Made by a program: the position numbers and the translations under genes. This document shows positions 6,704-47,741 of a stretch of 59,447 nucleotides of DNA, piece by piece (position 1 is the stretch's first letter; the number at the start of each line of letters is the position of its first letter). The stretch lies in the NCBI GenBank assembly GCA_029267355.1, contig JAJUJA010000005.1, forward strand, positions 1-59,447, read 5' to 3'. The stretch comes from Elusimicrobiota bacterium. GTDB taxonomy: Bacteria; Elusimicrobiota; Elusimicrobia; Elusimicrobiales; UBA9959. A model generated the notes under the pieces. It did not search any database, was not told the origin of the DNA, and saw only the letters and a list, made by a program, of their open reading frames with translations.

Positions 6704-8521
6704 TTAGATGAATTGCTTGTCGCCGCGTTTCCTGAGGGAATGGTCAAGTATTTTTTTTCTCATTCTTACGCTTTTGGGAGTGACTTCCACAAACTCGTCT
6801 TCGGCTATGTATTCAAGCGCCTGCTCTAATGAAAGCCGCCGCGGCGGAGTAAGAATTATTGACTCGTCAGAGCCGGAGGAGCGCATATTGCTTTGCTTCT
6901 TTTCTTTACAGGGGTTCACGACCAGATCATTGTCTCTGAGATTTTCGCCCACTATCTGGCCCATATAAACATCTTCGCCTGGTCCGACAAACATTTTGCC
7001 GTGGTCCTGAAGATAATTAAGGGAATAGGAAGCTGTCTGGCCTGTTTCTTTGACTATGAAAACGCCGAGCCTCGCCGGCGGCTGGAAGGCGCCTTTCGGC
7101 ATATAGCCGTGAAAGCTTTGATGCATAAGGCCGTTGCCCTTGGTCAAGGTCATAAATTCATTTTTGAAACCTATAAGGGCCTTTGAAGAAATCAAATATT
7201 CAAGCCGTACTCTGCCCTGGGAATCTGTTTCCATATTTCTCATTTTGGCGTTTCTTTTGCCCATTGAATCCATGACCGCGCCCTGAAATTCGCTTGGCAA
7301 ATCAACTATTACCTCTTCCACCGGCTCGCACACCACGCCGTTTTCCGTTTTCTCTATTATTTTCATCTTGGACACGCAAAGCTCAAAGCCCTCTCTGCGC
7401 ATAGTTTCAATTAAAACCGAAAGATGAAGCTCGCCGCGGCCGGAAACTTTATACCCGCTTTCGCCGGGTATATCCTCAACTTTAAGCCCGACATTTACCT
7501 GAGCTTCCCTGAAAAGTCTGTCTCTAATCTGGGTTATATTAACGAATTTCCCCTCTTTGCCGGCGAATGGGCCGTCATTGGCGTAAAATTCCATTGATAT
7601 TGTCGGTTCATCTATTTTAAGCCCTTCAAGAAAGCCGGGATTTTCCTCGCAGGATACGGTGTCGCCTGCGTCTATGCCGTCAAGCCCGTAAAGAGCGGCT
7701 ATATCGCCGCATACCGCCTTTTGAACCTCTTTCTTTTCAAGCCCGTCGTACTTCATTATCTGTAAAACTTTCCTTTTTAAATTTTTTCCTGCCGCAGACA
7801 TCAAAACAACATTTTGATTTTTGGACACTTCCCCTGAAACTATTCTGCCTATGCCTATTCTGCCTGTATAAGGGCTGTAATCAAGCATGGTTACAAGCAT
7901 TCTCAGCGGTTTATCTCTTTCGTCTTTGGGCCCCGGTATATGCCTGATTATCGCCTCAAAAAGCGGGTCAAGATTTTCGCCTTTTTTATTCAGATCATCT
8001 GTCGCTATCCCCTGCTTGCCTGAAGCGTAAATCACGGGGAAATCAAGCTGTCTGTCAGAGGCGTTCAAGTCTATGAAAAGCGAAAAAACCTTGTCCAGCG
8101 CCTTGTGAGCTTCCGCATTGGGCCTGTCTATCTTGTTTATGACCACCAGAGCTTTAAGGTCCAGCTCAAGAGCTTTCTTCAAAACAAATCTTGTCTGCGG
8201 CATAGGGCCGTCGAGAGCGTCAACAAGCAGCAGAACGCCGTCCACCATCCTTAAAACTCTTTCAACCTCGCTTGAAAAATCGGCATGGCCCGGCGTGTCA
8301 ACTATATGTATGGCCGTATCCTTGTATTTTACTGATGTGTTTTTGGAAAGTATGGTTATGCCTCTTTCTCTTTCCAGATCATTTGAATCCATTACGCATT
8401 CAGCATTTTCATCCTTGACCTTGAAATAACCGGTCTGTTTCAGCATAGCGTCAACAAGAGTTGTCTTGCCGTGGTCAACATGGGCCACTATGGCTATATT
8501 GCGCAAATCTTTTCTTTCCAT
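6704..8521 (-). CDS. typA: Translational GTPase TypA/BipA
   Basis: NIAIVAHVDHGKTTLVD, ERERGITI, DTPGH, NKID, GRGELHL, EVTPKSVRMRK. Start moved to the ATG at 8521. Confidence 0.96.
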   Translation of the reverse strand: MERKDLRNIAIVAHVDHGKTTLVDAMLKQTGYFKVKDENAECVMDSNDLERERGITILSKNTSVKYKDTAIHIVDTPGHADFSSEVERVLRMVDGVLLLVDALDGPMPQTRFVLKKALELDLKALVVINKIDRPNAEAHKALDKVFSLFIDLNASDRQLDFPVIYASGKQGIATDDLNKKGENLDPLFEAIIRHIPGPKDERDKPLRMLVTMLDYSPYTGRIGIGRIVSGEVSKNQNVVLMSAAGKNLKRKVLQIMKYDGLEKKEVQKAVCGDIAALYGLDGIDAGDTVSCEENPGFLEGLKIDEPTISMEFYANDGPFAGKEGKFVNITQIRDRLFREAQVNVGLKVEDIPGESGYKVSGRGELHLSVLIETMRREGFELCVSKMKIIEKTENGVVCEPVEEVIVDLPSEFQGAVMDSMGKRNAKMRNMETDSQGRVRLEYLISSKALIGFKNEFMTLTKGNGLMHQSFHGYMPKGAFQPPARLGVFIVKETGQTASYSLNYLQDHGKMFVGPGEDVYMGQIVGENLRDNDLVVNPCKEKKQSNMRSSGSDESIILTPPRRLSLEQALEYIAEDEFVEVTPKSVRMRKKILDHSLRKRGDKQFI

Positions 8522-23530: not shown

Positions 23531-24727
23531 ATGAAAAAATTCAGACTGCTGATTGCCTCGCTTCTTTTGATGCCGGTCCTTGCTTTCTCCGGCCAGGCGG
23601 CAAGCCAGTTGTCGGGTTTTGGATATCCATCTTTCGAAATACCTCAGCCTCAAGCTCCCTATAAAGACGCCTCGCAGATAACGGGACTTCCGCTTTATTC
23701 CTTCTCCAGAGAAGGGATGATTTCATCTTATCTTAAAGCGGCTATAGACTCTTCCCGGTATTCAGTGGACATAGCGATATACGGCATAAGCGACTCACAG
23801 CTGGCGCAGGCGGTAATAGAGGCGAAACAAAGAGGCGTCAAGGTCAGAATGATAGTGAATCAGGCGCATCTTTTTGCAGCAAAAGTTGATCCGTCCCTTC
23901 AGGCCCTTATAGACGCAAAAGTTGAGATAAGAACTCTCAAAGGCGGCGGAAGATACGGCATAATGCACAATAAACTTGCGATTTTCGATTCAAGGATACT
24001 ATTCGGCGGCTCTTTCAACTGGACATTAAAGGCCAATAATTCAAATTTTGAAAATGCAATCTTTTCGGCAGACTCAAAGTATATATCCGGTTATAAGGCA
24101 TATTTTGAATGGATGTGGTCATATGCCAGGCCTTATGAACAGGGGCCTATGAGCGACTATGATGTTTCCAATCTTAAATTCATTCCGTCCGACAATTCTC
24201 CATCGGTTTCCTTTAATTCAATAAGATTGCCGTCCTACGCTTTCTCGCCAAACGGCGGCATAAAAGAAACCATAATAAAAGCCATAGATGCAGCCGGCAA
24301 AGAGATCAAAGTCGCCATTTTCAGTTTTTATGACGAGAAAATCTATGATGCGCTTAAGCGCGCAGCTTTAAGAGGAGTTAAAGTTAAAATGGTGGCGGAC
24401 AGGGTCCAGTCCAGCCAGAGCGACATAGTAAAGAAAATGTATTTAGAGGGCTATGACTTCAGATGGTCAGCCGGGTTTTCCGGCGGCGTTATGCACAATA
24501 AGTTTATTGTACTGGATTCCAAGCTTCTTATAAGCGGCTCTTTCAATTTTTCAGACAGCGCCCAGTATTACAATTTTGAGAATATATTTATAACCGACAA
24601 AAGTTCATATACGTCGGCCTTTGAGCAGGAATTTGACTATATATATTCCCAGGCCAGAAAGCCGTCCCAGGAAGAAATAGACTCAATAAATTCATTTTCC
24701 TCAGACAGCAGATTTGAGTCTTTCTGA
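23531..24727 (+). CDS. Secreted phospholipase D-family protein with two HKD domains
   Basis: Signal peptide; HNKLAIFD..GSFNW..NFEN and HNKFIVLD..GSFNF..NFEN. Confidence 0.9.
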   Translation: MKKFRLLIASLLLMPVLAFSGQAASQLSGFGYPSFEIPQPQAPYKDASQITGLPLYSFSREGMISSYLKAAIDSSRYSVDIAIYGISDSQLAQAVIEAKQRGVKVRMIVNQAHLFAAKVDPSLQALIDAKVEIRTLKGGGRYGIMHNKLAIFDSRILFGGSFNWTLKANNSNFENAIFSADSKYISGYKAYFEWMWSYARPYEQGPMSDYDVSNLKFIPSDNSPSVSFNSIRLPSYAFSPNGGIKETIIKAIDAAGKEIKVAIFSFYDEKIYDALKRAALRGVKVKMVADRVQSSQSDIVKKMYLEGYDFRWSAGFSGGVMHNKFIVLDSKLLISGSFNFSDSAQYYNFENIFITDKSSYTSAFEQEFDYIYSQARKPSQEEIDSINSFSSDSRFESF

Positions 24728-24760: not shown

Positions 24761-25852
24761 ATGGTACATGATATAACTAGGATTCTCTGCCAGGCCATTA
24801 CTCAGTCGGATATTTCATATTTCATTACCGACAAAGACGGCAAAATCATTTTCGCAAATTCCGCCTTTGAAAAAAACACCGGCTATTCCTCAAAGGAAAT
24901 CGAGGGAAAAACTCCTTCTTTGATAAAAAGCGGAAAACATAACAGCGAATTTTACCAAAATCTCTGGAACACCATAAAAACCGGCAGTAAATTTAAAAGC
25001 CGCATAATAAACAAAAAGAAGAATGGTCAGCTCTATACCGTTATGCTGAGCATACAGCCTGTCAGAATAGATGGCGAGGTTAGATATTATATAGGCAGAG
25101 AGGAAGACATTGAAGGGCTGATGCAGCTTGAATCCAAGCTGATAGAATCGCAGAAAATGGAATCTCTGGCCACAATGACAGGCGAGCTGGCTCATAATTT
25201 CAACAATTTGCTTACGGTCATAATAGGCTCCATGGAGCTTATTTCCGAAGAATTAAAAGAAGATTCTCCGACAAAAAAGCTTTCTGTTGAGCTTTTGAAA
25301 AGCGCAAAAGAACAGGCCAAAACCATAAAACAGCTTATGATCTTTGCGAGAAAACAAAACTCTTCAGAAATAAAAGAAGCGGACATAAATGAAACTCTAA
25401 GGGATCTTCTGCCCTTGATACAATCGCAGGTAGGATCCAAAATAAGGGTCTTTTTCATTCCTTCCGGCACCATCTATAAAGCGCGTATAGACGAAAATCA
25501 GATCAAGCAGGCAGTACTTAATCTGACTTCAAATTCAAAAGACGCCATAGACGGCACAGGAGAAATAAATATTCTGACCTACACGATCAATAATCAGACA
25601 GAAGAAAAAGAGCCCTACCACACAGGAAATTTTTCAGTTATAGAGGTGCAGGATAATGGCTCAGGAATACCGGAATCGGCCATAGAACATATATTTGAGC
25701 CTTTTTATACCACAAAACAGAAGGGCAAAGGCACGGGACTGGGTCTTTCAAGCGTTTACGGTATAGTAAAAAATCACGGCGGCTATGTTTATGCCTCAAA
25801 TCTTAAGCCCAAAGGCGCATCCTTCAAAATCTATCTTCCGTCAGCAAAATAA
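24761..25852 (+). CDS. Cytoplasmic PAS sensor histidine kinase
   Basis: PAS/PAC, LAHNFNNLL H-box, NSKDA, DNGSG, FEPFYTTK, GTGLGL. Confidence 0.92.
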   Translation: MVHDITRILCQAITQSDISYFITDKDGKIIFANSAFEKNTGYSSKEIEGKTPSLIKSGKHNSEFYQNLWNTIKTGSKFKSRIINKKKNGQLYTVMLSIQPVRIDGEVRYYIGREEDIEGLMQLESKLIESQKMESLATMTGELAHNFNNLLTVIIGSMELISEELKEDSPTKKLSVELLKSAKEQAKTIKQLMIFARKQNSSEIKEADINETLRDLLPLIQSQVGSKIRVFFIPSGTIYKARIDENQIKQAVLNLTSNSKDAIDGTGEINILTYTINNQTEEKEPYHTGNFSVIEVQDNGSGIPESAIEHIFEPFYTTKQKGKGTGLGLSSVYGIVKNHGGYVYASNLKPKGASFKIYLPSAK

Positions 25853-25870
25853 TTTTTTTCCGCAGCGCTT

Positions 25871-28800
25871 TTAACTTTCTCTTTTACCAAAGCCGAATTT
25901 ATCTTTGAGCCATTGCTGCATATCATCCATATAAGAATATGTAACAGGCGTCATAAGAAGAGTTATGAGAAGCGAAAGAGACTGACCGCCTATTATGACC
26001 CAGGCCATGGAACGCCTCATATTCGCGCCGGGGCCTGTGCCGAAAGCTGTCGGCAGCATGGCAAAGATGAGAGTAAGAGTCGTCATAAGTATGGGCCTGA
26101 GCCTTGTCCTGTTGGCCTCTATCATTGCCTCATACCTCGGCTTGCCTTCAGCCCGCAGGGTATTCGTATAGTCAACCTGAAGTATGGAGTTTTTCTTTAC
26201 TATGCCGAAAAGCATAAACATGCCCATAAGAGAAAATATAGTCAGGTTGGAGCCGGTTAAAAACAGCGATATTATCGCAAAAGGCAAAGTTAGAGGCAAA
26301 ACCACTATGATTGAAACTGGATAAACAAAACTTTCAAACTGAGCCGCCAGCACTATATATACGAACAAAAAGGCAAGTATAAAAGACATAATGAAACTCT
26401 TAAGCATTCTTCCAAATTCCTTGGCCTTGCCTGTCGGCTGAGCCTTATACTGAGGCGGAAATTTCAGAGAGGCGAAGGAAGATTGGCATATATTCAGCAG
26501 CTTGCTTAAAGAGGCCTCTTTTTCCAGATTGGCATAGATTGATATCTTTCTTTGCCTGTTATAACGGTCTATTTGCGTAGGCCCCATGCCCTCTTCAAGT
26601 TTAGCCACGCTGTCAAGACGGACAACGCGTCCCTGTGCGGCCGGCACCATAAGAGCCTTTACCACTTCGGGGCTGTTTCTATAATTTTTGTCTGCCCTTA
26701 CCCTTACCTGATACAAGTCGTCTCCTTCCTTGTACTTGGTTATATTTTCAGCCCCGCCTACCATAGTCCTAAGCGAAGTGGCTATATCTTCCGGCTTCAC
26801 CCCGAGTTTTGCCGCCTTTTCCCTGTCTATGATGACTCTGTACTCGGGTTTGGCATAGGTAAAACTTGTGTCTAAATCCACAGCGCCCCTGATATTTTTG
26901 AGTTTTCCCAAAATCTCGGAAGAGGCATATTGAAGCTTGTCCAGTTCCGGTCCGGTTATCACATATTCCATGTCATAATTTTTCATCCCGCTTATGCTGC
27001 CCTGACCGCCTATTATCACCGAGGTTCTGAGCGTATTATATTTCTCGAGCATTTTTCTGGCTGAAGCCATCACCGCCGAAAGGGGAACGCTTCTTTCAGA
27101 AGCAGGAGTCAACTCAAAGAACAGAGAGGACTGATTTGAGGCATTTACATTTCCCTGGCCTGAACCGACAAGGACAAGACTTTCCTTTACATAAGGGATT
27201 CTTTTCATCTCCTTTTCTATCTGGAAGGACACATTCTTCATCATTTCTATATTTGTGCCCTCAGGAGCTGTTATATTAACCTGAAACATTCCGGTATCGT
27301 CCTGCGGCAAAAAGTCTTTTCCTATGAGAAAAAGCAGAGGAAACATTGAAGCTATGACAAGAAAAGCAAAAAGCACCATTTTTTTCCTGTTGGATAAGGC
27401 CCATTCCAGCACAATCACATATCTGTCGGCAATGTACTTATTAAGTTTGTCAACAAACTGCTGAAATTTTGTTGAACCGTGGGCTTTTTTCAAAAAAATG
27501 GATGAAAGCATCGGAGTTATTGTTAAAGCCACAAAAGTGCTTATGGCGACTGCATAGGCTATGGACAGGCCGTAGCTGTTTATGAATCTGCCCACCATTC
27601 CGGACATATAGGCCAGGGGCACAAAGATGGCCAGAAGCGAAATTGAAATGGCTATAACGGCAAAGCCTATTTCGGCGGAACCTGAAATAGCCGCCTCATA
27701 AGGACTCTTGCCGTATTTTTCCATATGCCTGTGTATATTTTCTATCATAACGACAGCATCGTCTATGACAAGGCCGACAGCTATCATAAGGCCGAGAAGC
27801 GTCATATTGTTCAGTGTAAACCCGCTCTTATCCATAAGAGCAAAGGCGCCTATTAAAGAAACTGGTATGGCCACTGATGATATTATGGTGGAACGCCAGT
27901 CGCCTATAAAAAGCAGTATTATCAGAGAGGCCAAAATTGAGCCCAATACCAAGTGTTCATAAACGGCATGCACTGAACCTTTTATAAAAATGCTTTGATC
28001 GCCTATAACCTTTACTTCCACATCCTTGGGCAAAGTTTTTTTAAGTTCAGAAAGCCTTTCCTTGACCTTGTCTATAACCTCAACCGTATTGGTCCCTGAC
28101 TGTTTTCTGACCGTAAGCGTTATTGCCGGCACGCCGTTGAGATAGGAAACGCTCTGAATTTCCTCTCCTGTATCTTCAACTTTGGCTATATCCGAAATTT
28201 TAATCTGGGCGCCGTTTGCTGAAGCAACTACTATATCTTCAAAATCCTTTGGAGAAGTTATTCTGCCGAGAGTTCTCAAAACGAAATCCTTGTCCTTTTG
28301 CTCAACTTTGCCGCCCGGTATTTCCACATTATGCTGGGTGAGAGCGTCTTTGACCTGTTTTATGGAAATATTGAGCGCCTGAAGTTTTAAAGGATTTACA
28401 AGTATATGTATTTCCCTTTCCCTTCCGCCTATCAAATCTATGGCGCCTACTCCGTTGACGGTTTCTATATTTTCCTTTATCTGTTTTTTGACTATGTTGG
28501 TGAATTCAATTATGTTCCTTCTTGAAGCGGCCGCTATACTCATAACCGGCATACTGCCGAAGTCAACCTTGCTTATAACCGGCTGATCGGTGCCCTGAGG
28601 CAGCTGGCTTAATACGGAGTTTACCTTGTCTCTGATTTCCTGAGCGGCCACATCCGGGTCTTTTTCAAGCTCAAATTTTATCATTACAACCGAAAGGCCC
28701 TCATAGCTTGTGGAACTTAAATCCTCTATGCCGCTTACAGTATTTACCGCTTCCTCTATTATCTTTGTAACTGACGATTCAATTTCCTCGGGGCTGGCGC

Positions 28801-28957
28801 CTCTCAGAGATGTTTGAACCGTGACAAAAGGGAACTCTATGTTGGGGTAAAGGTCAACGCCCAGTCTTGCAAAGGCAAATAAGCCGAGAACAACTATGGC
28901 CACGGAAGTCATTGAAGTGAAAACCGGCCTTTTCACTGAAAATTCTATTATTTTCAT
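25871..28957 (-). CDS. RND efflux permease (AcrB/HAE1-like)
   Basis: 1028 aa, VIDDAVVMIENI, RLRPILMTT, 12-TM pattern. Confidence 0.95.
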   Translation of the reverse strand: MKIIEFSVKRPVFTSMTSVAIVVLGLFAFARLGVDLYPNIEFPFVTVQTSLRGASPEEIESSVTKIIEEAVNTVSGIEDLSSTSYEGLSVVMIKFELEKDPDVAAQEIRDKVNSVLSQLPQGTDQPVISKVDFGSMPVMSIAAASRRNIIEFTNIVKKQIKENIETVNGVGAIDLIGGREREIHILVNPLKLQALNISIKQVKDALTQHNVEIPGGKVEQKDKDFVLRTLGRITSPKDFEDIVVASANGAQIKISDIAKVEDTGEEIQSVSYLNGVPAITLTVRKQSGTNTVEVIDKVKERLSELKKTLPKDVEVKVIGDQSIFIKGSVHAVYEHLVLGSILASLIILLFIGDWRSTIISSVAIPVSLIGAFALMDKSGFTLNNMTLLGLMIAVGLVIDDAVVMIENIHRHMEKYGKSPYEAAISGSAEIGFAVIAISISLLAIFVPLAYMSGMVGRFINSYGLSIAYAVAISTFVALTITPMLSSIFLKKAHGSTKFQQFVDKLNKYIADRYVIVLEWALSNRKKMVLFAFLVIASMFPLLFLIGKDFLPQDDTGMFQVNITAPEGTNIEMMKNVSFQIEKEMKRIPYVKESLVLVGSGQGNVNASNQSSLFFELTPASERSVPLSAVMASARKMLEKYNTLRTSVIIGGQGSISGMKNYDMEYVITGPELDKLQYASSEILGKLKNIRGAVDLDTSFTYAKPEYRVIIDREKAAKLGVKPEDIATSLRTMVGGAENITKYKEGDDLYQVRVRADKNYRNSPEVVKALMVPAAQGRVVRLDSVAKLEEGMGPTQIDRYNRQRKISIYANLEKEASLSKLLNICQSSFASLKFPPQYKAQPTGKAKEFGRMLKSFIMSFILAFLFVYIVLAAQFESFVYPVSIIVVLPLTLPFAIISLFLTGSNLTIFSLMGMFMLFGIVKKNSILQVDYTNTLRAEGKPRYEAMIEANRTRLRPILMTTLTLIFAMLPTAFGTGPGANMRRSMAWVIIGGQSLSLLITLLMTPVTYSYMDDMQQWLKDKFGFGKRES

Positions 28958-28977
28958 ATTTTCCTTCCAGAGATGCT

Positions 28978-29871
28978 TCAGTTATCCTGCGCCAGAGATA
29001 TCTTTGCCTTGTCATAAATGCCGTAAAGTCCGACAGTGACAATTTTATCTTTCGGCGAAATATTTTTGACCTGCGCATACTGAGAATCGCTAAGTCCCAA
29101 AGAAGCCTTTATTTCCCTTACTGAATGGCCTGTTTCATCCACAGCGTATATATAGGGAATATTGTCCTTGTAGACTATGGCGGAAAGCGGCACAGCCAGC
29201 ACATTTTTGGCTTCATTGACTGAAATTCTTGCCTCGCAGAACATTCCTGATTTAAGATAAGAACCGCTGTTATCCGCCACAGCCTCAACAAGAGCGGTTT
29301 TTGAAACTCTGTCCACCACAGGACTTATTTTTTCTATAACTGCGTAAAAAACTTTTTCAGGCCAGGCCTCAACCCTGAAACTGACTTTCTGGCCGAGACG
29401 GACATTTGAAAGATATTTCTCCGGCACATCCATTTGTATTCTGACCTTTTTCTGATTTACCACAAGAGCTATCGGCGTCTGAACCGTTATATCAGCTCCA
29501 GGGTCCTGGTATATTCTGCCTATGACTCCATCCAGCGTGGAAGGTATCGGAGCCGGTTCATAAACGACGCCCACCTCATCTTTCTTAACATAAGCTATAG
29601 CCTGATCTTTTGCGACGGCATCGCCTTCCCTAAGGACGTTTTCAACCAATTTTCCGTTAATTCTTGAATATATAGTCGCTTCTTCCATAGCCTTAACTGC
29701 GGCGCCAAGGACTATCTCATTTGAAATAGTTCTTAAAGAAGGATTTTCCGCTTTTACAAAGAAAACGTCCTTCTCAATAGCGGCAAAAGCCTCGGCTTCC
29801 CTGTTTTTACAGGAAGTAAAAGAAAGAGCCAAAAGCACCGCACCCAAAAGAATAAATTTTTTATTTTCCAT
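28978..29871 (-). CDS. RND periplasmic adaptor (MFP), lipoprotein, short hairpin
   Basis: Lipobox-like FTSC, lipoyl-like halves, LKSGMF. Start moved to ATG 29871 (SD GGAGG). Confidence 0.88.
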   Translation of the reverse strand: MENKKFILLGAVLLALSFTSCKNREAEAFAAIEKDVFFVKAENPSLRTISNEIVLGAAVKAMEEATIYSRINGKLVENVLREGDAVAKDQAIAYVKKDEVGVVYEPAPIPSTLDGVIGRIYQDPGADITVQTPIALVVNQKKVRIQMDVPEKYLSNVRLGQKVSFRVEAWPEKVFYAVIEKISPVVDRVSKTALVEAVADNSGSYLKSGMFCEARISVNEAKNVLAVPLSAIVYKDNIPYIYAVDETGHSVREIKASLGLSDSQYAQVKNISPKDKIVTVGLYGIYDKAKISLAQDN

Positions 29872-29888
29872 AAAGTCCTCCAAAAATC

Positions 29889-31745
29889 TTAATCGCCAAG
29901 CTCCCATTCAAGCCGGGCCAGATTACTGCAATAATCATGTTCAGCCTGAGCCCAGAGAGTTTCAGCCCTATTTAAGGCCAAAGCTGTATCATTAAGGTCA
30001 AGCTGTCCGGCAAGGCCGTTTCTGAATCTGCTTTCCATCGCCTCAAGCGCCTTCCTGGCCGTTGAAACGGAAGTTTTCTGCGAGTCCATTCTTTTTTTAG
30101 CTTCCTCTAAATCCAGAATAGCGCTTTTAAGATCTATCTTTATCTTTCTTTTCAAGTCGTCAAGATTTCTCTGAGCAACTGTTACTCCGCCTTCGGCCTG
30201 CTTTATTCTCGCAGATACTGAAAAACCGCTGAAAATCGGCATATTGAATTTTATGCCCGCTACGGCGCTCCATGAACGCATGGATGAAGAAGGAAACCCC
30301 GAATCGCTTTGGCCTGAGAAAGATTTGGAGGCAAAACCGTAAAGGTTAGGCCAATGTCCGGCCTTTTCCAGACGCAGCTGCTTTTTAGCCAGCTCAAGAT
30401 TTAAAGAAGCCAGTCTGTAATCTGAACGTTTTTTAAGCGCCGCGGCATAAAGCTGATCATAGTCAGGAACTGTAAATTCCCCGCAAAAAGGGCCCGAGGA
30501 AAGCTCTATTTTCTCGTCAGGGTCCAGACCTATTATATTTTTCAAAGCGAGCAGACCTTGATTATAGGCATTTTCAGCTTTTATAAGACTCGGCTCATTA
30601 TTTGAAACCTCAACTTCCTGCCTCATAACTTCCAAATCGCTTTTCAATCCTTTTGAAAACTGCTCCTTTATAGTAGCCAGATGCTGTCTGGATATTTCCA
30701 AAGTCTCTTTCTGTATTTCAGCCATTTCTCTCATCAAGGCGACGGAGTAATATGTTTGTTTCACGGTTCTTTTTATGGTTCTTTTTGAAGAAAGCAGATT
30801 TTCCTTTGCCGAATCGGCATAAATTTCCGCCATTTCTATGCCCGTGCCTACTTTTCCGCCAGCCCAAAGCACCTGATTCAAATCCAGACTGGCAGAATAA
30901 GCATTGTCCATTCCTATCTCTATTTTGTTACCGCCGAAAAAAAGAGACTGTTTTTCTATATTTCTTGTATATGAAGCGGAAAGCGAAAGCGAGGGATAAA
31001 CTCCGCCCCAATATTCACGTATTCTTTGCTGATATATTCTCTGATTTTCAACAGCATTAAGAACTGACACATTTTTGCTCATTGCGGTTTCAACCGCTTC
31101 TTCAACGCTAAGCTGCGCAAAGGAAAATGAAGATAAGAAAGGAATCAAAATGACAAACAACATATACTTCATATTCCTTATTCCGGCGGCGGCTATAGCT
31201 GACAATTTTTTAAGTAAATCCGGGCCTATTGAATTTTTAGCCAATCTCGTTTCAAGTATCTGATAAGACAAAAGCGCCGATATCATATGGATTATGTATT
31301 CAAGGTCATTTTTCCTGATTTTCCCTGCCTCAACCATGGCTGACAGCTTTTCTCTCACCTTTTGCCTGTTTTTTTCTCTCATCTGCATGGCATGTTTTCT
31401 TATAGGGCTTGATTCAGGGGCATCCATTATTTTCATAATGCATTTTACGACATCTGGATTTGAATTTAAAAAATCATGATGCTTTTTCAATACTGCATAA
31501 ATAATATCTTGCGGATTTTCACATTTATCGGAGTCAAACTCCAGATCTTCCAGTTCTCTTGCTTTGCAGGAAAAAACCTGTTTTATAAGATCTTCCTTAT
31601 CCTTGAAGTAATAGTAAATCATCGGCTTGGTAACTGAGAGATTGGCCGCTATCTCGCGCATTGAAACGGCTTCAACGCCTTTCTCCCCCATGAGCCTTAC
31701 GGCTTCCTTCAAAATGTCTTCCTTTGAAATTTTTATTTTTCTCAT
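29889..31745 (-). CDS. TetR/AcrR-family regulator fused to TolC-family outer membrane factor
   Basis: aa 1-~190 TetR (SMREIAANLSVTKPMIYYYFKDKEDL HTH). aa 192-210 signal-peptide-like MKYMLFVILIPFLSSFSFA. aa 211-618 two OEP repeats. No stop between them. Confidence 0.88.
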   Translation of the reverse strand: MRKIKISKEDILKEAVRLMGEKGVEAVSMREIAANLSVTKPMIYYYFKDKEDLIKQVFSCKARELEDLEFDSDKCENPQDIIYAVLKKHHDFLNSNPDVVKCIMKIMDAPESSPIRKHAMQMREKNRQKVREKLSAMVEAGKIRKNDLEYIIHMISALLSYQILETRLAKNSIGPDLLKKLSAIAAAGIRNMKYMLFVILIPFLSSFSFAQLSVEEAVETAMSKNVSVLNAVENQRIYQQRIREYWGGVYPSLSLSASYTRNIEKQSLFFGGNKIEIGMDNAYSASLDLNQVLWAGGKVGTGIEMAEIYADSAKENLLSSKRTIKRTVKQTYYSVALMREMAEIQKETLEISRQHLATIKEQFSKGLKSDLEVMRQEVEVSNNEPSLIKAENAYNQGLLALKNIIGLDPDEKIELSSGPFCGEFTVPDYDQLYAAALKKRSDYRLASLNLELAKKQLRLEKAGHWPNLYGFASKSFSGQSDSGFPSSSMRSWSAVAGIKFNMPIFSGFSVSARIKQAEGGVTVAQRNLDDLKRKIKIDLKSAILDLEEAKKRMDSQKTSVSTARKALEAMESRFRNGLAGQLDLNDTALALNRAETLWAQAEHDYCSNLARLEWELGD

Positions 31746-31796
31746 AATTTACCTACCGGCAAGTAAATTATAACTTAAAAAAGCCGGCACTGTCAA
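31744..31796 (-). promoter_or_regulatory. Consensus promoter with overlapping palindromic TetR-type operator
   Basis: TTGACA (31796-31791), 18 bp, TATAAT (31772-31767). A 28-bp imperfect palindrome ATAATTTAC-CTACCGGCAA-GTAAATTAT (31744-31771) covers the -10, the start site and part of the ATG. Confidence 0.82.
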
Positions 31797-31826
31797 GCTT
31801 GGTTTTTTGTAAACGAAAAACGCGGG

Positions 31827-33287
31827 TTAAAATCTGGAGCTTTTAAGCAGATTAAAAAGCTTAATATACTCGCCGGCGGATTTATTCCATGAGTAATCGC
31901 CTTTCATCGCATTTCTGACAGCGCTGTTCCAAAGCTCTCTGGATGAGTAAAGAGATATTATACGGCCAAGAATACTTGACATATTCTCCGCATTGGGGAA
32001 GGCCATGGAAAAGCCGTTTGAGGCGGTAAAATTATCTTTGTCATAAAAGACTGTATCCCTCAGCCCGCCGGTGGCATTAACAACCGGCAAAGCGCCGTAT
32101 CTCATTGATATCATCTGGCTTAAGCCGCAGGGCTCAAACCTTGAAGGCATAAGAAAAATATCGCAAGACGCGTAGATCTTATGCGCCATTTCCTCGTCAA
32201 ATGAGTTTATGAAAGCGGCCCTGCCCGGATTTTTTTCGGCAAGATCTTTCAAAGCCTCCGTAATTGCCGGCTCGCCTACTCCCAGAAATACGAATTGCAT
32301 TTTATCCAGAAAAGCCGGCGCGGATTGGGCGATTATATCCACGCCCTTTTGCCAGTCCAGTCTTGAAACGCAGCCGGCCAGAACGGCGTTTTTATCCTCT
32401 TTAAGTCCCAGTTCTTTTTGCAATGATTTTTTGCAATGCGGCTTGCCGCGCCAGAAGGTCTTGTGATCATATCCTCTGTAGATAAAGGTATCAGTGGCCG
32501 GGTCCCATATTTCGGTGTCTATGCCGTTTAGTATGCCGAAAAGCTTTTCGCTTCTGCTTTTAAGCACGCCTTCAAGCCCCTTACCGAAGTCCGCGCCTGA
32601 TTGAATTTCAAGGGCATAGGTCGGGCTGACCGTCGTAACAAAATCGGCAAAGATTATCCCCGCCTTCATAAAATTTATTCCGCCGTAAAACTCAAGCTTG
32701 TCAGGTGTAAAATCCATCCACCCGAAACCGGCCTTTACGAAGGTCTCTCTCGGAAACATGCCCTGATAGGCGATATTATGTATTGTAAATACAGTCCCGG
32801 TTTTAGCAAAAAAAGCGTCTATCAAATACAGCGTTTTCAAATAGGCGGGAATTAAAGCGGTCTGCCAGTCATGACAATGTATTATGTCGGGCTTAAAGCC
32901 CAGGAATTTCGCGCCTTCAAGAACAGCCCTGGAAAAGAAAATAAATCTTTCATCATTGTCCTGATAATCGCCGTGCGGACCCCTGTAAAGTCCCGGCCTG
33001 TCAAAATATTTTTGATTCTCAACAAAATAAACCTTAACCTTGCCCCATTGCGCCAGATAAAGAGAAGCTTTCTCAAGCCTGCCGGAGACGGGGACAAGAT
33101 AGCTTCCGGGCACGGCCTTAAATGAAAAAGCGCCGCCGCCGGTATTTCTGTATTTAGGCAGAAAAAGAACAAGTTCGTCAACATTTTCGCAGCCGGAAAA
33201 AAACCTTGAAAGAGCCCCTGTCACGTCGGCAAGGCCTCCCGTTTTACAAAATGGAAAAGCTTCTGAAGCCGCCTGAAGAATTTTCAT
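31827..33287 (-). CDS. glgA: Glycogen synthase
   Basis: KTGGLADV, HCHDWQT, TIHNIAYQG, PSRFEPCGL. Confidence 0.96.
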   Translation of the reverse strand: MKILQAASEAFPFCKTGGLADVTGALSRFFSGCENVDELVLFLPKYRNTGGGAFSFKAVPGSYLVPVSGRLEKASLYLAQWGKVKVYFVENQKYFDRPGLYRGPHGDYQDNDERFIFFSRAVLEGAKFLGFKPDIIHCHDWQTALIPAYLKTLYLIDAFFAKTGTVFTIHNIAYQGMFPRETFVKAGFGWMDFTPDKLEFYGGINFMKAGIIFADFVTTVSPTYALEIQSGADFGKGLEGVLKSRSEKLFGILNGIDTEIWDPATDTFIYRGYDHKTFWRGKPHCKKSLQKELGLKEDKNAVLAGCVSRLDWQKGVDIIAQSAPAFLDKMQFVFLGVGEPAITEALKDLAEKNPGRAAFINSFDEEMAHKIYASCDIFLMPSRFEPCGLSQMISMRYGALPVVNATGGLRDTVFYDKDNFTASNGFSMAFPNAENMSSILGRIISLYSSRELWNSAVRNAMKGDYSWNKSAGEYIKLFNLLKSSRF

Positions 33288-36786: not shown

Positions 36787-37428
36787 TTATACCGCCAGTC
36801 CGGCAAGAGCCATCAATTTTAAAACTAAACCCATAGGATAAACGATAAAAAGCTTGAACAGGCCTGTCAGAGCCATGAATATTATGATGTAAAAGCCGTA
36901 GGGTATATGCCTTTCATAGACCTGAAGCGCCTTATAAGGCAGAAGCCCCATAAGTATCTGGCTGCCGTCAAGAGGATATATGGGGATGAGGTTAAAGAAA
37001 GCCAAAGCGATGTTTATATACACCATAAAAGTCAGAAGATGGTAAAAAGGGACAAAAAAGGCAAGACCAAAAAGGCCTGAGATATAAAAAAGCTTAAGGA
37101 CAGCCGCGCTTAGAAAGGCAAGAGCGAAGTTGGAAGCCGGGCCGCTGGCAGCCACAAAAACCATATCATATCTTGGATCTCTCATCCTGTATGGATTTAC
37201 CGGCACCGGCTTGGCCCAGCCTATGAAAGGCATATGTGAAAAGTATGCCAGAGCCGGCAAAATTATGGTGCCGACCGGGTCTATATGCGGTATGGGATTA
37301 AGCGTGAGACGGCCGGAGAGATATGCCGTATCATCGCCCCTTTTATAAGCCGTATAACCATGCATAAATTCGTGAATTATGATGGAAAAAAACAAGGCGG
37401 GTATTTGTAAAATCCACTCCATAAGCAT
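36787..37428 (-). CDS. Site-2 protease (M50) family membrane metalloprotease
   Basis: HEFMH, AASGP.SN, NLIPIYPLDG. True start may be the ATG at 37422. Confidence 0.92.
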   Translation of the reverse strand: MLMEWILQIPALFFSIIIHEFMHGYTAYKRGDDTAYLSGRLTLNPIPHIDPVGTIILPALAYFSHMPFIGWAKPVPVNPYRMRDPRYDMVFVAASGPASNFALAFLSAAVLKLFYISGLFGLAFFVPFYHLLTFMVYINIALAFFNLIPIYPLDGSQILMGLLPYKALQVYERHIPYGFYIIIFMALTGLFKLFIVYPMGLVLKLMALAGLAV

Positions 37429-46182: not shown

Positions 46183-46265
46183 AAATCTTTCTGTTTTTAG
46201 AGAGCCTCGCTACAGTTATATTCTACAAACAATAACTCAAAAAAAACTCAATTTTATTTCAAAAA

Positions 46266-47741
46266 TTAGAGTTTCTCTTTCTCTATTTTTCTTCTGAATA
46301 TCTTGACTATTTTGGCGGCTTTTTTGATTGACTTGTCTATTATTTTGAGGCCATTTTTTTCGTCGACATCTTCCTTTATGGACTCGCCTATAAGAGAAGT
46401 GTATCCCGACATAACCGCCAGCGTATTGTTTATATCATGGGAAAGATCGCTTGTTATTTTTTTAATTTTCTCTCTGGCTTTCATCAAAGCCAGCTCGCTT
46501 TCTATCTTTTTTATACGGCTTATATCCCGGCCGATGGCAAGCACATACTTTACCCGCCCGGTTTCGTCTTTTATCGGAGCCTTCACCACATTGACAGTTC
46601 TGCCCCTCCATTCATAGACTGCATTTATGGTCTGGCCTTCAAGAACCTTTTTTTCATCCTCTCTTATCTTGCCGGCAAGCTCTTTTCCAAACAGGTCATA
46701 ATCAGTGCGGCCTATCATCTCTTTCCTTGACTTTTTCATAAAATGTGAACAGGCCTTATTTGCCCCTACGTAAAAGCCTCCAGCATTTTTTATATATATC
46801 ATATCCGGAGCTATTTCATATATTTTGTGGAGTATTTCTTTCTGGGAGGCTATTTTACCGAAAAGCTCCCTTTCCCTGCCAGAATCTCTTATACTGCCTA
46901 TTATCTTGTAAGGTTTCCCGTTTTTGAAAATCACCGAAGATTTCTGGTCGGCGTAAAAAAAAGAGCCGTCTTTTTTCATTATCCTGTATTTAAGTATATC
47001 CCTGGTTTTACCGCTTTTAACGGCGCTGTTAAAGGCCTTCATAACATAGGGCAAATCCTCTTTATGCGTAAACTCAAACATATTATGGCCTATCACATCG
47101 CTTTCCTCATAACCGTAGCTTTTGTACCTCCTGTTCATATATTCTATTTTCCCGGACATATCTGCCATATAGATTATATCTCTGGCATTTTCAACTATCT
47201 GCCTCAAATTTTCATTCTGATCTTCAATTCTTTTGAGATTAAGCAGATTATAAACTATCATGGCATAAAAGCCGGCCATAACAGACATAAAATTCAATTC
47301 TTTTTTGCCGTAACCGCCTTTCCTGTCGGCTACGGCCAAAACGCCCACTGTATTGTTTTTTATGACCGCCGGGACAGCCAGAAAGCTTTTCATCCTTATG
47401 TGGCCTTCAGGCAGTTTTCTTTCTCCCATATCAGAGGGCAAATCGTTTGAGATAAAAGGCTTTTTGCTTTTTATGGCAATGCCGTAGACCGTATCAAAAT
47501 TCTTGAAAACTATCTGCCTGTTTTCAACTCTGCACTCACTGATGACATTTTTGGATAAGGTTGGAACTATAAGATAGCCGGTTTTATCATCCAAATAGCC
47601 GGCAAAACCGTACATACTCTGCGTTTCCTTCTTTATTATTCTCAGAACTTTCTCTGATATTTTGAAAAAATCAGGGTCTTTGTCCGTAAGGTAGGAAAAA
47701 ATAAGTTTTTTAAGAGATTTCTGATAATGGCATTCTCTCAT
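46266..47741 (-). CDS. GAF-PAS-PAS-HisKA(DHp) sensor lacking an HATPase domain
   Basis: GAF (LPEGHI), two PAS/PAC domains, H-box LSHDINN at H435; the protein ends 56 aa later with no N/G1/F/G2 boxes. Confidence 0.85.
   Translation of the reverse strand: MRECHYQKSLKKLIFSYLTDKDPDFFKISEKVLRIIKKETQSMYGFAGYLDDKTGYLIVPTLSKNVISECRVENRQIVFKNFDTVYGIAIKSKKPFISNDLPSDMGERKLPEGHIRMKSFLAVPAVIKNNTVGVLAVADRKGGYGKKELNFMSVMAGFYAMIVYNLLNLKRIEDQNENLRQIVENARDIIYMADMSGKIEYMNRRYKSYGYEESDVIGHNMFEFTHKEDLPYVMKAFNSAVKSGKTRDILKYRIMKKDGSFFYADQKSSVIFKNGKPYKIIGSIRDSGRERELFGKIASQKEILHKIYEIAPDMIYIKNAGGFYVGANKACSHFMKKSRKEMIGRTDYDLFGKELAGKIREDEKKVLEGQTINAVYEWRGRTVNVVKAPIKDETGRVKYVLAIGRDISRIKKIESELALMKAREKIKKITSDLSHDINNTLAVMSGYTSLIGESIKEDVDEKNGLKIIDKSIKKAAKIVKIFRRKIEKEKL

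Follow-up and report, generated by a model that had tools for sequence, protein, structure and literature searches.

In the 59,447-nt contig JAJUJA010000005.1 of an Elusimicrobiota bacterium (assembly GCA_029267355.1), which we refer to in its whole length as the window, a single open reading frame (ORF) on the reverse strand joins a complete TetR-family repressor to a TolC-type outer membrane factor (OMF) through an internal segment that looks like a signal peptide. Comparison with related sequences indicates that this is a natural gene fusion, that it is old, and that it derives from an adjacent, translationally coupled tetR–OMF gene pair. We think it probable, though far from certain, that the chain is a precursor which is sent to the Sec translocon by its internal signal and cut there by signal peptidase I (SPase I), giving a mature OMF and a TetR with the signal peptide as its tail. 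The fused gene is the first of an operon with the order OMF, membrane fusion protein (MFP), resistance-nodulation-division (RND) pump, all on one strand, and its parts and partners are as follows.

29889–31745 (−): fused ORF, TetR / internal signal-peptide-like segment / OMF, 618 aa plus TAA, no internal stop
31176–31745 (−): TetR-family repressor domain, aa 1–190, helix-turn-helix (HTH) at aa 11–57 (Pfam, helices of the structure model, ratio of nonsynonymous to synonymous substitution rates)
31122–31175 (−): internal signal-peptide-like segment, aa 191–208 (n-, h- and c-region features, alignment to the signal peptides of split orthologues)
end of 31122–31175 (−): predicted SPase I site A208/Q209 (S-x-A motif)
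29892–31121 (−): mature TolC-type OMF, aa 209–618 (two OEP stretches, alignment to TolC, structure model)
28978–29871 (−): MFP, the periplasmic adaptor (Pfam HlyD_D23 and HlyD_3); its start is likely the ATG at 29871, which GGAGG precedes at a 5-nt spacer (the ORF lister had the start at 29907)
25871–28957 (−): RND inner-membrane pump of the AcrB/AcrD/AcrF family, 1028 aa (Pfam ACR_tran, 943 bits)

An earlier reading of the bare letters (hereafter the sequence-only reading) had described one ORF with a complete TetR, a Sec-type signal and a full OMF at the head of an OMF–MFP–RND operon, and this description holds on profile searches, a structure model and the stop-free 618 codons. The first half matches TetR_N (PF00440) at aa 11–57 with 57.6 bits against a Pfam cut-off of 24, and the second matches OEP (PF02321) in two stretches with 197.8 bits against a cut-off of 22; the NCBIfam model TIGR01844 (type_I_sec_TolC) aligns to aa 211–614 with a score of 162.6, below its cut-off of 225.15. 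In an AlphaFold2 (AF2) model of the fused protein, built on a 52-sequence alignment and with a mean predicted local distance difference test score (pLDDT) of 86.2, the TetR part forms nine helices at aa 8–190, a complete TetR fold with block pLDDT mostly 71–90, residues 192–208 fall below a pLDDT of 50, and the OMF part is confident over 210–616 with a predicted beta-barrel. The solved sequences nearest to the TetR half are TetR/AcrR-family regulators (best E 6e-11), and in a phmmer comparison residues 31–409 of the OMF query matched residues 28–405 of E. coli TolC (1ek9), the TolC homology beginning about 3 residues from the predicted mature N-terminus. By its HTH score and two-domain all-alpha fold the first half is a member of the TetR family, and by its two OEP repeats over the mature protein the second is a member of the OMF/TolC family, with which it also shares a TolC-like length and an alignment over nearly the whole mature chain. 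It differs from that family in that the fused chain has no N-terminal cleavable Sec signal; the export signal is internal, behind a 190-aa cytoplasmic domain.

The internal segment has the features of a signal peptide

The junction reads AAAGIR190-N-M192-K-YMLFVILIPFL-SSFSFA208/Q209-LSVEEAV, with two basic residues (R190 and K193), an 11-residue hydrophobic core and S206-F-A208 in front of the predicted cleavage site. It thus has the basic n-region, the h-region of 7–15 residues and the small residues at −3 and −1 by which a polyprotein signal would be recognised. In an alignment with OMF orthologues that have a gene of their own, the hydrophobic segment of the fused chain falls on their N-terminal signal peptide, and the N-terminal signal of the genome's other OMF ends in FISLSSFA/QQ, much like the internal FLSSFSFA/QL. 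A Tat signal was ruled out, as there is no twin-arginine motif in the sequence, and so was a lipoprotein signal, as the window's protein has no lipobox Cys; the channel is therefore of the TolC type and not of the OprM type.

Family-wide, signal-peptide features were scored with a custom script, not with a trained predictor, and this found one to four K/R within the six residues before an uncharged run of 13–27 residues (median 18). The run is ended by a charged residue only 13–16 positions on in many members, and Ala/Ser-rich small-x-small motifs precede the conserved start of the OMF; a count of the −3/−1 residues at one fixed column was uninformative, as the c-region floats in the alignment. 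The junction sequence itself varies. A lysine occupies position 193 in 41 of 47 fused proteins, and the reading frame is kept through junction insertions of 16–30 residues. The genome encodes a SPase I (149 bits, above cut-off) and, on contig 100, a site-2 protease (S2P/Peptidase_M50, 192 bits). Separate from the latter, Peptidase_M50 matches also occur in the window itself, in a small open frame (about 214 codons) at 36904–37398 (−), some 5 kb from the fused gene.

The fusion is common in one family of Elusimicrobiota

The sequence-only reading had proposed a search for proteins that combine TetR_N and OEP, and the architecture proved to be widespread. We surveyed 401 Elusimicrobiota genomes, including the window's own, and called a locus fused when a stop-free match ran from aa 11 or earlier to aa 617 or later. 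Among the matches listed, beyond which 176 weaker ones exist, 39 of the 401 genomes carry the fusion. The window's own family accounts for 36 of these 39 (36 of the 47 genomes of that family), and the remainder come one each from three other families. As for the 11 genomes of the family without the fusion, one (G054, locus L048) has the two genes in different frames, another (G174, locus L040) has a distant paralogue with an in-frame stop, and the remaining nine have either weak OMF matches only (four) or no match at E ≤ 1e-20 (five).

A wider search gave the same picture. Among the best 120 matches from 5.8 billion protein clusters searched, PF00440 and PF02321 occur together in 109 clusters besides the window's own; these fused proteins are 599–661 aa long and 39–79% identical, and the named ones come from Elusimicrobiota metagenome-assembled genomes (MAGs). 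They are called 'TolC family protein' or, at JGI, 'outer membrane protein TolC/AcrR family transcriptional regulator', and the former, the current annotation, hides the regulator half. When 1.84 billion representatives were searched with a profile, five full-span fusions of the main family were retrieved (P0092, P0114, P0121, P0123 and P0124), along with four distant ones (P0181, P0208, P0235 and P0243). P0181 clusters with a protein whose name derives from an Elusimicrobia MAG, P0208 belongs to the Elusimicrobiales, and P0243 is 690 aa long. The last of these, like P0304–P0317, belongs to a shallow family of 689–691-aa proteins with 16 fused clusters, that of P0243 counted, at 80–100% identity; the family has a different TetR C-terminal domain (PF13305), and its named unfused relatives are mostly Gemmatimonadota.

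The ESM Atlas holds three named TetR_N+OEP clusters, with Elusimicrobiota (170 members), Gemmatimonadota (98) and Verrucomicrobiota (54) as the phyla most often represented, the phylum labels being automatic and so a lead only. If these labels and the P0243 family are confirmed, the architecture apparently arose more than once, and its recurrence in clusters dominated by Gemmatimonadota or Verrucomicrobiota would argue for a selectable advantage over a neutral accident.

Probable origin from a translationally coupled pair

Related loci in which the two genes are still apart suggest how the fusion came about. In one set (L035–L039, L058–L060, L066–L067 and L040) the tetR gene ends in a single TAA or TAG and the ATG of the OMF gene follows in frame 0–5 codons on; in four of these (L035–L038) a strong Shine–Dalgarno (SD)-like run, AAAGGAG or GGGGG, lies within the last tetR codons. 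In a second set (L061–L065 and L068–L075) tetR and the OMF gene are in different frames. The split pairs of the sister lineages (L035–L039, L058–L060 and L066–L067) resemble the fused locus in gene order, operator core and promoter position, encode homologous proteins of 27–33% identity, and have the signal peptide at the homologous position. They differ from the window's fused gene in having a stop and then an ATG, which gives two polypeptides by translational coupling.

We placed these forms on a tree of the OMF domain, made by a quick maximum-likelihood search on 65 rows and rooted on the genome's second OMF. All but one of the 35 fused rows fall within one 37-row clade (Shimodaira–Hasegawa-like approximate likelihood ratio test, SH-aLRT, 93), which also takes in two variants with TetR deletions and a secondary split form, L048. 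The remaining fused row, L043, lies in an unresolved polytomy adjoining this clade, and all other split forms are basal; the fused label requires three changes on the tree. The simplest history would be that the stop codon of a translationally coupled tetR–OMF pair was lost and that the fusion was then long retained. In this way the Sec signal peptide that had stood at the front of the OMF came to lie inside a longer chain.

The later fate of some copies can also be followed. L048 (genome G054), although nested in the fused clade, is split again and has regained an ATG (MKMRTEKQKSLPALL...) before the same hydrophobic segment. Two other members have lost most of TetR through different internal in-frame deletions: L046, a second copy in genome G384 (contig 47; 500 aa), and P0122 (480 aa). 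In both, the TetR start codon remains, as do about 48 residues of the HTH region, and the frame still runs on through the signal segment to the OMF; P0122 has no Met near the junction. Such a pattern would be expected of a channel whose translation relies on the start codon of TetR. Taken together, out-of-frame neighbours, in-frame stop–ATG pairs, fusion, secondary split and deletion variants form an unusually complete evolutionary series and a clean case for how gene fusions that cross compartments are tolerated.

Two further observations concern these copies. G384 holds an intact fused copy (L021) beside L046. At L047 (genome G148, contig 64) an open frame of 507 codons comprises the last ~70 TetR residues before the signal segment and OMF, with stops farther upstream in frame, so that the TetR part is apparently disrupted.

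The repressor half, its predicted operator and a second operon

Both halves of the fused protein are under similar purifying selection. In pairwise comparisons by the Nei–Gojobori method (NG86), with pairs at 70–97% identity, the median ratio of nonsynonymous to synonymous substitution rates (dN/dS) was 0.20 for TetR (61 pairs) and 0.18 for the OMF (62 pairs). The control region upstream of the gene contains the following elements.

31767–31796 (−): sigma-70-type promoter, TTGACA-18 nt-TATAAT (score 12/12)
31744–31771 (−): predicted operator, a 28-bp imperfect palindrome ATAATTTACTTGCC/GGTAGGTAAATTAT, 12 of 14 arm pairs, overlapping the −10 box and the start codon
31749–31766 (−): conserved 18-bp operator core TTACTTGCCGGTAGGTAA, kept in relatives

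The consensus promoter had been noticed from the letters alone and is indeed the sole site with a score of 12/12 within 25700–32000; TTGACA and TATAAT stand at a like position 5' of the operator in most of the related loci compared. The 28-bp palindrome over the start, which had likewise been proposed as an operator, is there and its core is conserved, with the correction that the palindrome as a whole is imperfect. The consensus of the core, TTACYTACC/GGTAGGTAA, is by itself a perfect palindrome. In nearly all relatives compared, fused and split, its place is behind the −10 box and ahead of the start codon, and it is kept across flanks that range from AT-rich to GC-rich and across protein identities down to about 30%. 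Among the fused loci compared, L016 (genome G334, contig 143) is the only one without the core within about 150 nt upstream, and has a repeat-rich stretch of 30 nt (AGTCTGAATTCTGACT...) in its place.

The operator pattern occurs at exactly two sites in the window's genome, and a reversed control pattern gave no match. The second site, an exact copy, lies outside the window on contig 78 at 46257–46274 (about 8257–8274 of locus L055), between a TTGACA-17-TAATAT promoter and the ATG of a gene for a 429-aa OMF. This OMF has an ordinary N-terminal signal peptide, and its gene is the first of an OMF–MFP–MacB-type ABC operon. The site is kept 5' of the orthologous OMF gene in G316 (75% identity) and G060 (43%); elsewhere, two operator sites were found in G228, one in G379 and one in the split-form genome G080. 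A search of the window's genome for a further TetR like the fused one found none at E ≤ 0.01. It is therefore most likely, judging from these sites, that the repressor acts in trans on the second operon too, in which case it must reach DNA away from its own gene. Taken together, the conservation of the operator, the second operator locus and the dN/dS of 0.20 strongly support the view, already put forward in the sequence-only reading, that the DNA-binding domain is in use. For binding of the palindrome by TetR, the presence of the 18-bp core in fused and split loci and at a second operon is strong support of an indirect kind.

In one subclade (L010, L011, L012 and L014) an additional, stand-alone TetR paralogue, which matches the fused TetR at about 30% identity over aa 3–189, is encoded about 500–700 nt ahead of the fusion.

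Proposed processing of the fused chain

The route that we consider probable would run as follows. Translation would begin at the TetR start codon and the 190-aa TetR domain would fold in the cytoplasm. The internal signal would then engage the Sec translocon in an N-in, C-out orientation, the OMF moiety would be carried across the membrane, and SPase I would cut behind the c-region (in the window, after S-F-A208), freeing a mature TolC-type OMF for assembly into the outer membrane. The other product would be TetR with the signal peptide of about 18 residues as a C-terminal hydrophobic tail. This tail might be retained in the inner membrane, might be removed by proteases that clear signal peptides (S2P or SppA), or might let the h-region slip from the bilayer. 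If the tail is cleared or slips out, a soluble TetR would result, whereas persistent tethering would give a membrane-bound repressor close to where pump substrates build up. In either form TetR would repress at least two promoters through TTACYTACC/GGTAGGTAA, those of its own OMF–MFP–RND operon and of the OMF–MFP–MacB operon on the other contig. Sec targeting, cleavage, the fate of TetR, the repression of both OMF operons and the 1:1 tie of repressor dose to channel export suggested in the sequence-only reading are all predictions.

A more far-reaching version, in which active TetR would arise solely as a by-product of the channel's Sec targeting and SPase maturation, possibly with clearance by S2P, is one that we put forward tentatively and would not expect to hold. 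If it did, the supply of repressor for two efflux operons would report the amount of channel exported; if export or envelope biogenesis were blocked, the repressor would be trapped or destroyed and efflux de-repressed. A variant of this idea is that nascent TetR, kept at the membrane by co-translational insertion, may find its first target in cis, in the operator that lies about 20 nt before its own start codon.

How much regulatory novelty the fusion brings is a separate matter. As the ancestral split pair was already translationally coupled, the fusion may add little and may be nearly neutral. That it has been retained for so long, and apparently recurs in other phyla, leaves room for a real regulatory advantage.

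Several observations weigh against processing by signal peptidase, both those listed here and those that lend support to the alternatives below. Cleavage at the junction is deduced from sequence. The hydrophobic core is short (about 10–13 residues) and often contains Pro, which makes stable tethering of TetR doubtful. TetR acts as a dimer and the OMF as a trimer, so that the fused chain has no obvious structural logic. Finally, the tree behind the proposed history is a quick search in which L043 is unresolved and the fused label changes three times.

Alternative explanations

The sequence-only reading had set internal initiation beside the polyprotein as the alternative, and it is the main rival. 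Ribosomes might start independently at M192 or M195, or at near-cognate codons in relatives, with the full-length chain as a tolerated by-product and the TetR part at work while still fused or after unspecific proteolysis; as an account of the whole family we judge this unlikely. The AAGGA that had been noticed just upstream of these codons is present in the window, 2 nt from ATG192 and 11 nt from ATG195. The column of M192, in 47 fused proteins, holds L in 21, M in 13, F in 5, A, I and V in 2 each, and T and K in 1 each. At the nucleotide level the codon is ATG in 7 and TTG in 1 of 35 fused loci, the others having CTG, CTC, CTT, CTA, TTT, ATA, ATT, GTT, GCG, ACG, GCC or GGT, and CTG, in about 11 loci, could be a weak start.

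We also scanned each of the 35 loci for an in-frame ATG, GTG or TTG from 15 codons before the hydrophobic core to 1 codon into it, and for an SD-like 4-mer at 4–12 nt. Some in-frame start was found near the junction in 17 loci, five of which also have an SD-like 4-mer, and none in the other 18, which include both same-genus relatives of the window's organism, L006 (71% identity) and L007 (64%). Among the more distant proteins, P0181 and P0235 have no Met before the core, as is also the case for the deletion variant P0122, and P0208 has a Met solely inside the core. The strong SD of the split forms has been lost, the Arg being encoded by CGC or CGG in many fused loci, and the preservation of the frame across the junction insertions likewise speaks against an independent start. 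Moreover, for want of a stop codon, each TetR that is made comes attached to the signal segment and the OMF; the cell must handle this fusion product, and processing would be needed, even if some channel is made from an internal start. Thus, the comparative data speak against internal initiation as a general mechanism and favour the polyprotein, while internal initiation may contribute in some members, including the window's own organism.

It is hardly probable that free TetR arises by frameshifting, that is, that some ribosomes slip into the +1 frame and stop at an overlapping TGA while the rest read on into the OMF. The idea draws on the fact that a +1-frame stop (NTGAAR over the conserved [L/M]-K; 31167–31175 in the window) is found in 17 of the 35 fused loci, against 5.9 expected for a 4-codon junction window in the same ORFs, which might hint at another end for TetR. 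Yet the stop is missing in the other 18 loci, neither a slippery motif nor a conserved stimulatory element was seen, and the loci share ancestry, so that the excess is not made up of independent cases; a simpler account is that an ATGA overlap of stop and start in the ancestor left its trace here, along with the conserved [L/M]-K.

We give very little credence to an uncleaved signal anchor, with which the whole chain would be a type II inner-membrane protein and a one-component sensor like ToxR, the 'OMF' serving as its sensor domain. The topology before cleavage would be that of ToxR/CadC-type regulators, and the uncharged run reaches 21–27 residues in some members; in many others the core is merely 13–16 residues long and is followed by small-x-small motifs. 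The OMF is full-length, with both OEP repeats and a predicted beta-barrel, and the MFP–RND operon behind it needs an outer-membrane channel. Given where the N-terminus of TolC lies in its structure, a chain with no linker between the hydrophobic segment and the TolC-homologous part could not span the periplasm if left uncleaved.

An artefact, in which faulty sequencing or assembly took out a stop codon or altered the frame of two ordinary genes, can be rejected with near certainty: the genome is a draft of 152 contigs and none of the five short public contig pieces placed on the window covers 31078–31361, but the same stop-free fusion recurs in 38 other genomes, and over 100 protein clusters of independent origin share it. 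The public sequencing runs found to contain this organism are DNA metagenomes alone (shares 0.33 and 0.12), with no RNA run among them.

Comparison with known systems

To our knowledge, no bacterial polypeptide has been described that yields both a cytoplasmic transcription factor and an outer-membrane protein by way of signal peptidase. In its regulatory logic the fused gene's operon resembles AcrR-acrAB, MtrR-mtrCDE and TetR-tetA, which share the N-terminal HTH, the all-helical ligand domain and a palindromic operator over the promoter or start of an efflux operon, and the fused TetR gives weak matches to the models and solved structures of AcrR and MtrR. The scores of 46.3 against the AcrR model NF007949 (NCBIfam equivalog cut-off 271) and 41 against the MtrR model NF051852 (cut-off 280) are both far under the cut-offs, so that the fused TetR is no orthologue of either. 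In those systems the repressor has a gene of its own, whereas in the window it shares one chain with the channel and has no stop of its own.

Among the closest precedents for the mechanism is the cytochrome b/c1 precursor FbcH of Bradyrhizobium, in which one ORF with an internal signal-peptide-like segment encodes two mature proteins, proposed to be split by signal peptidase. The FbcH products are membrane or periplasmic partners of one complex, whereas those of the fused gene would be a cytoplasmic DNA-binding regulator and an outer-membrane channel. ToxR, CadC and TcpP are membrane-tethered one-component regulators and, like the fused protein, begin with a DNA-binding domain in the cytoplasm, after which comes one hydrophobic segment; they differ in having a winged helix and a sensor domain outside, where the fused protein has a TetR fold, a segment as short as a signal peptide and a channel protein.

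Signal peptidase acting on a membrane-held regulator has a precedent in the anti-sigma factors RsiV and RsiP, with signal peptidase as the site-1 protease, followed by the site-2 protease RasP (PMC8844934, PMC4183432, PMC6066255 and PMC9044953). These factors resemble the fused protein in that a regulatory domain in the cytoplasm is joined by one membrane-spanning segment to a part outside that signal peptidase removes (in the fused protein, by a predicted cut). The cytoplasmic part could then be freed by a site-2 protease, for which the S2P homologue in the window's genome is a candidate. Cleavage of RsiV and RsiP depends on a signal and destroys an inhibitor; in the fused protein it would be a constitutive maturation, and the cytoplasmic part would itself be the DNA-binding repressor. 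None of the systems compared joins a DNA-binding repressor to an outer-membrane protein.

A full-text literature search, the scope of which did not extend to subscription journals and supplements, found no paper on a TetR–OMF fusion or a membrane-tethered TetR, and a search on internal signal peptides and polyproteins in bacteria found no example of a bacterial polyprotein among the papers it listed. Among the passages of PMC4827864 that concern TetR and Elusimicrobia, the one on fusion proteins makes no mention of a TetR–OMF fusion.

Should the proposed cut take place, a single polypeptide of a bacterium would give rise to a cytoplasmic transcription factor and an outer-membrane protein, parted by the general signal peptidase. 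It would follow that a folded cytoplasmic domain of 190 residues in front of a Sec signal is compatible with the natural biogenesis of an outer-membrane protein. The fused gene would also provide a natural TetR with a C-terminal membrane tail, and with it a testable tie between envelope export and the regulation of efflux pumps.

A further gene in the window

Apart from the fused gene and its operon, the window encodes at 23531–24727 (+) a secreted-looking protein of 398 aa. Its translation contains two HxK-type motifs, IMHNKLAIFD and VMHNKFIVLD, which suggest a protein of the phospholipase D/nuclease family.

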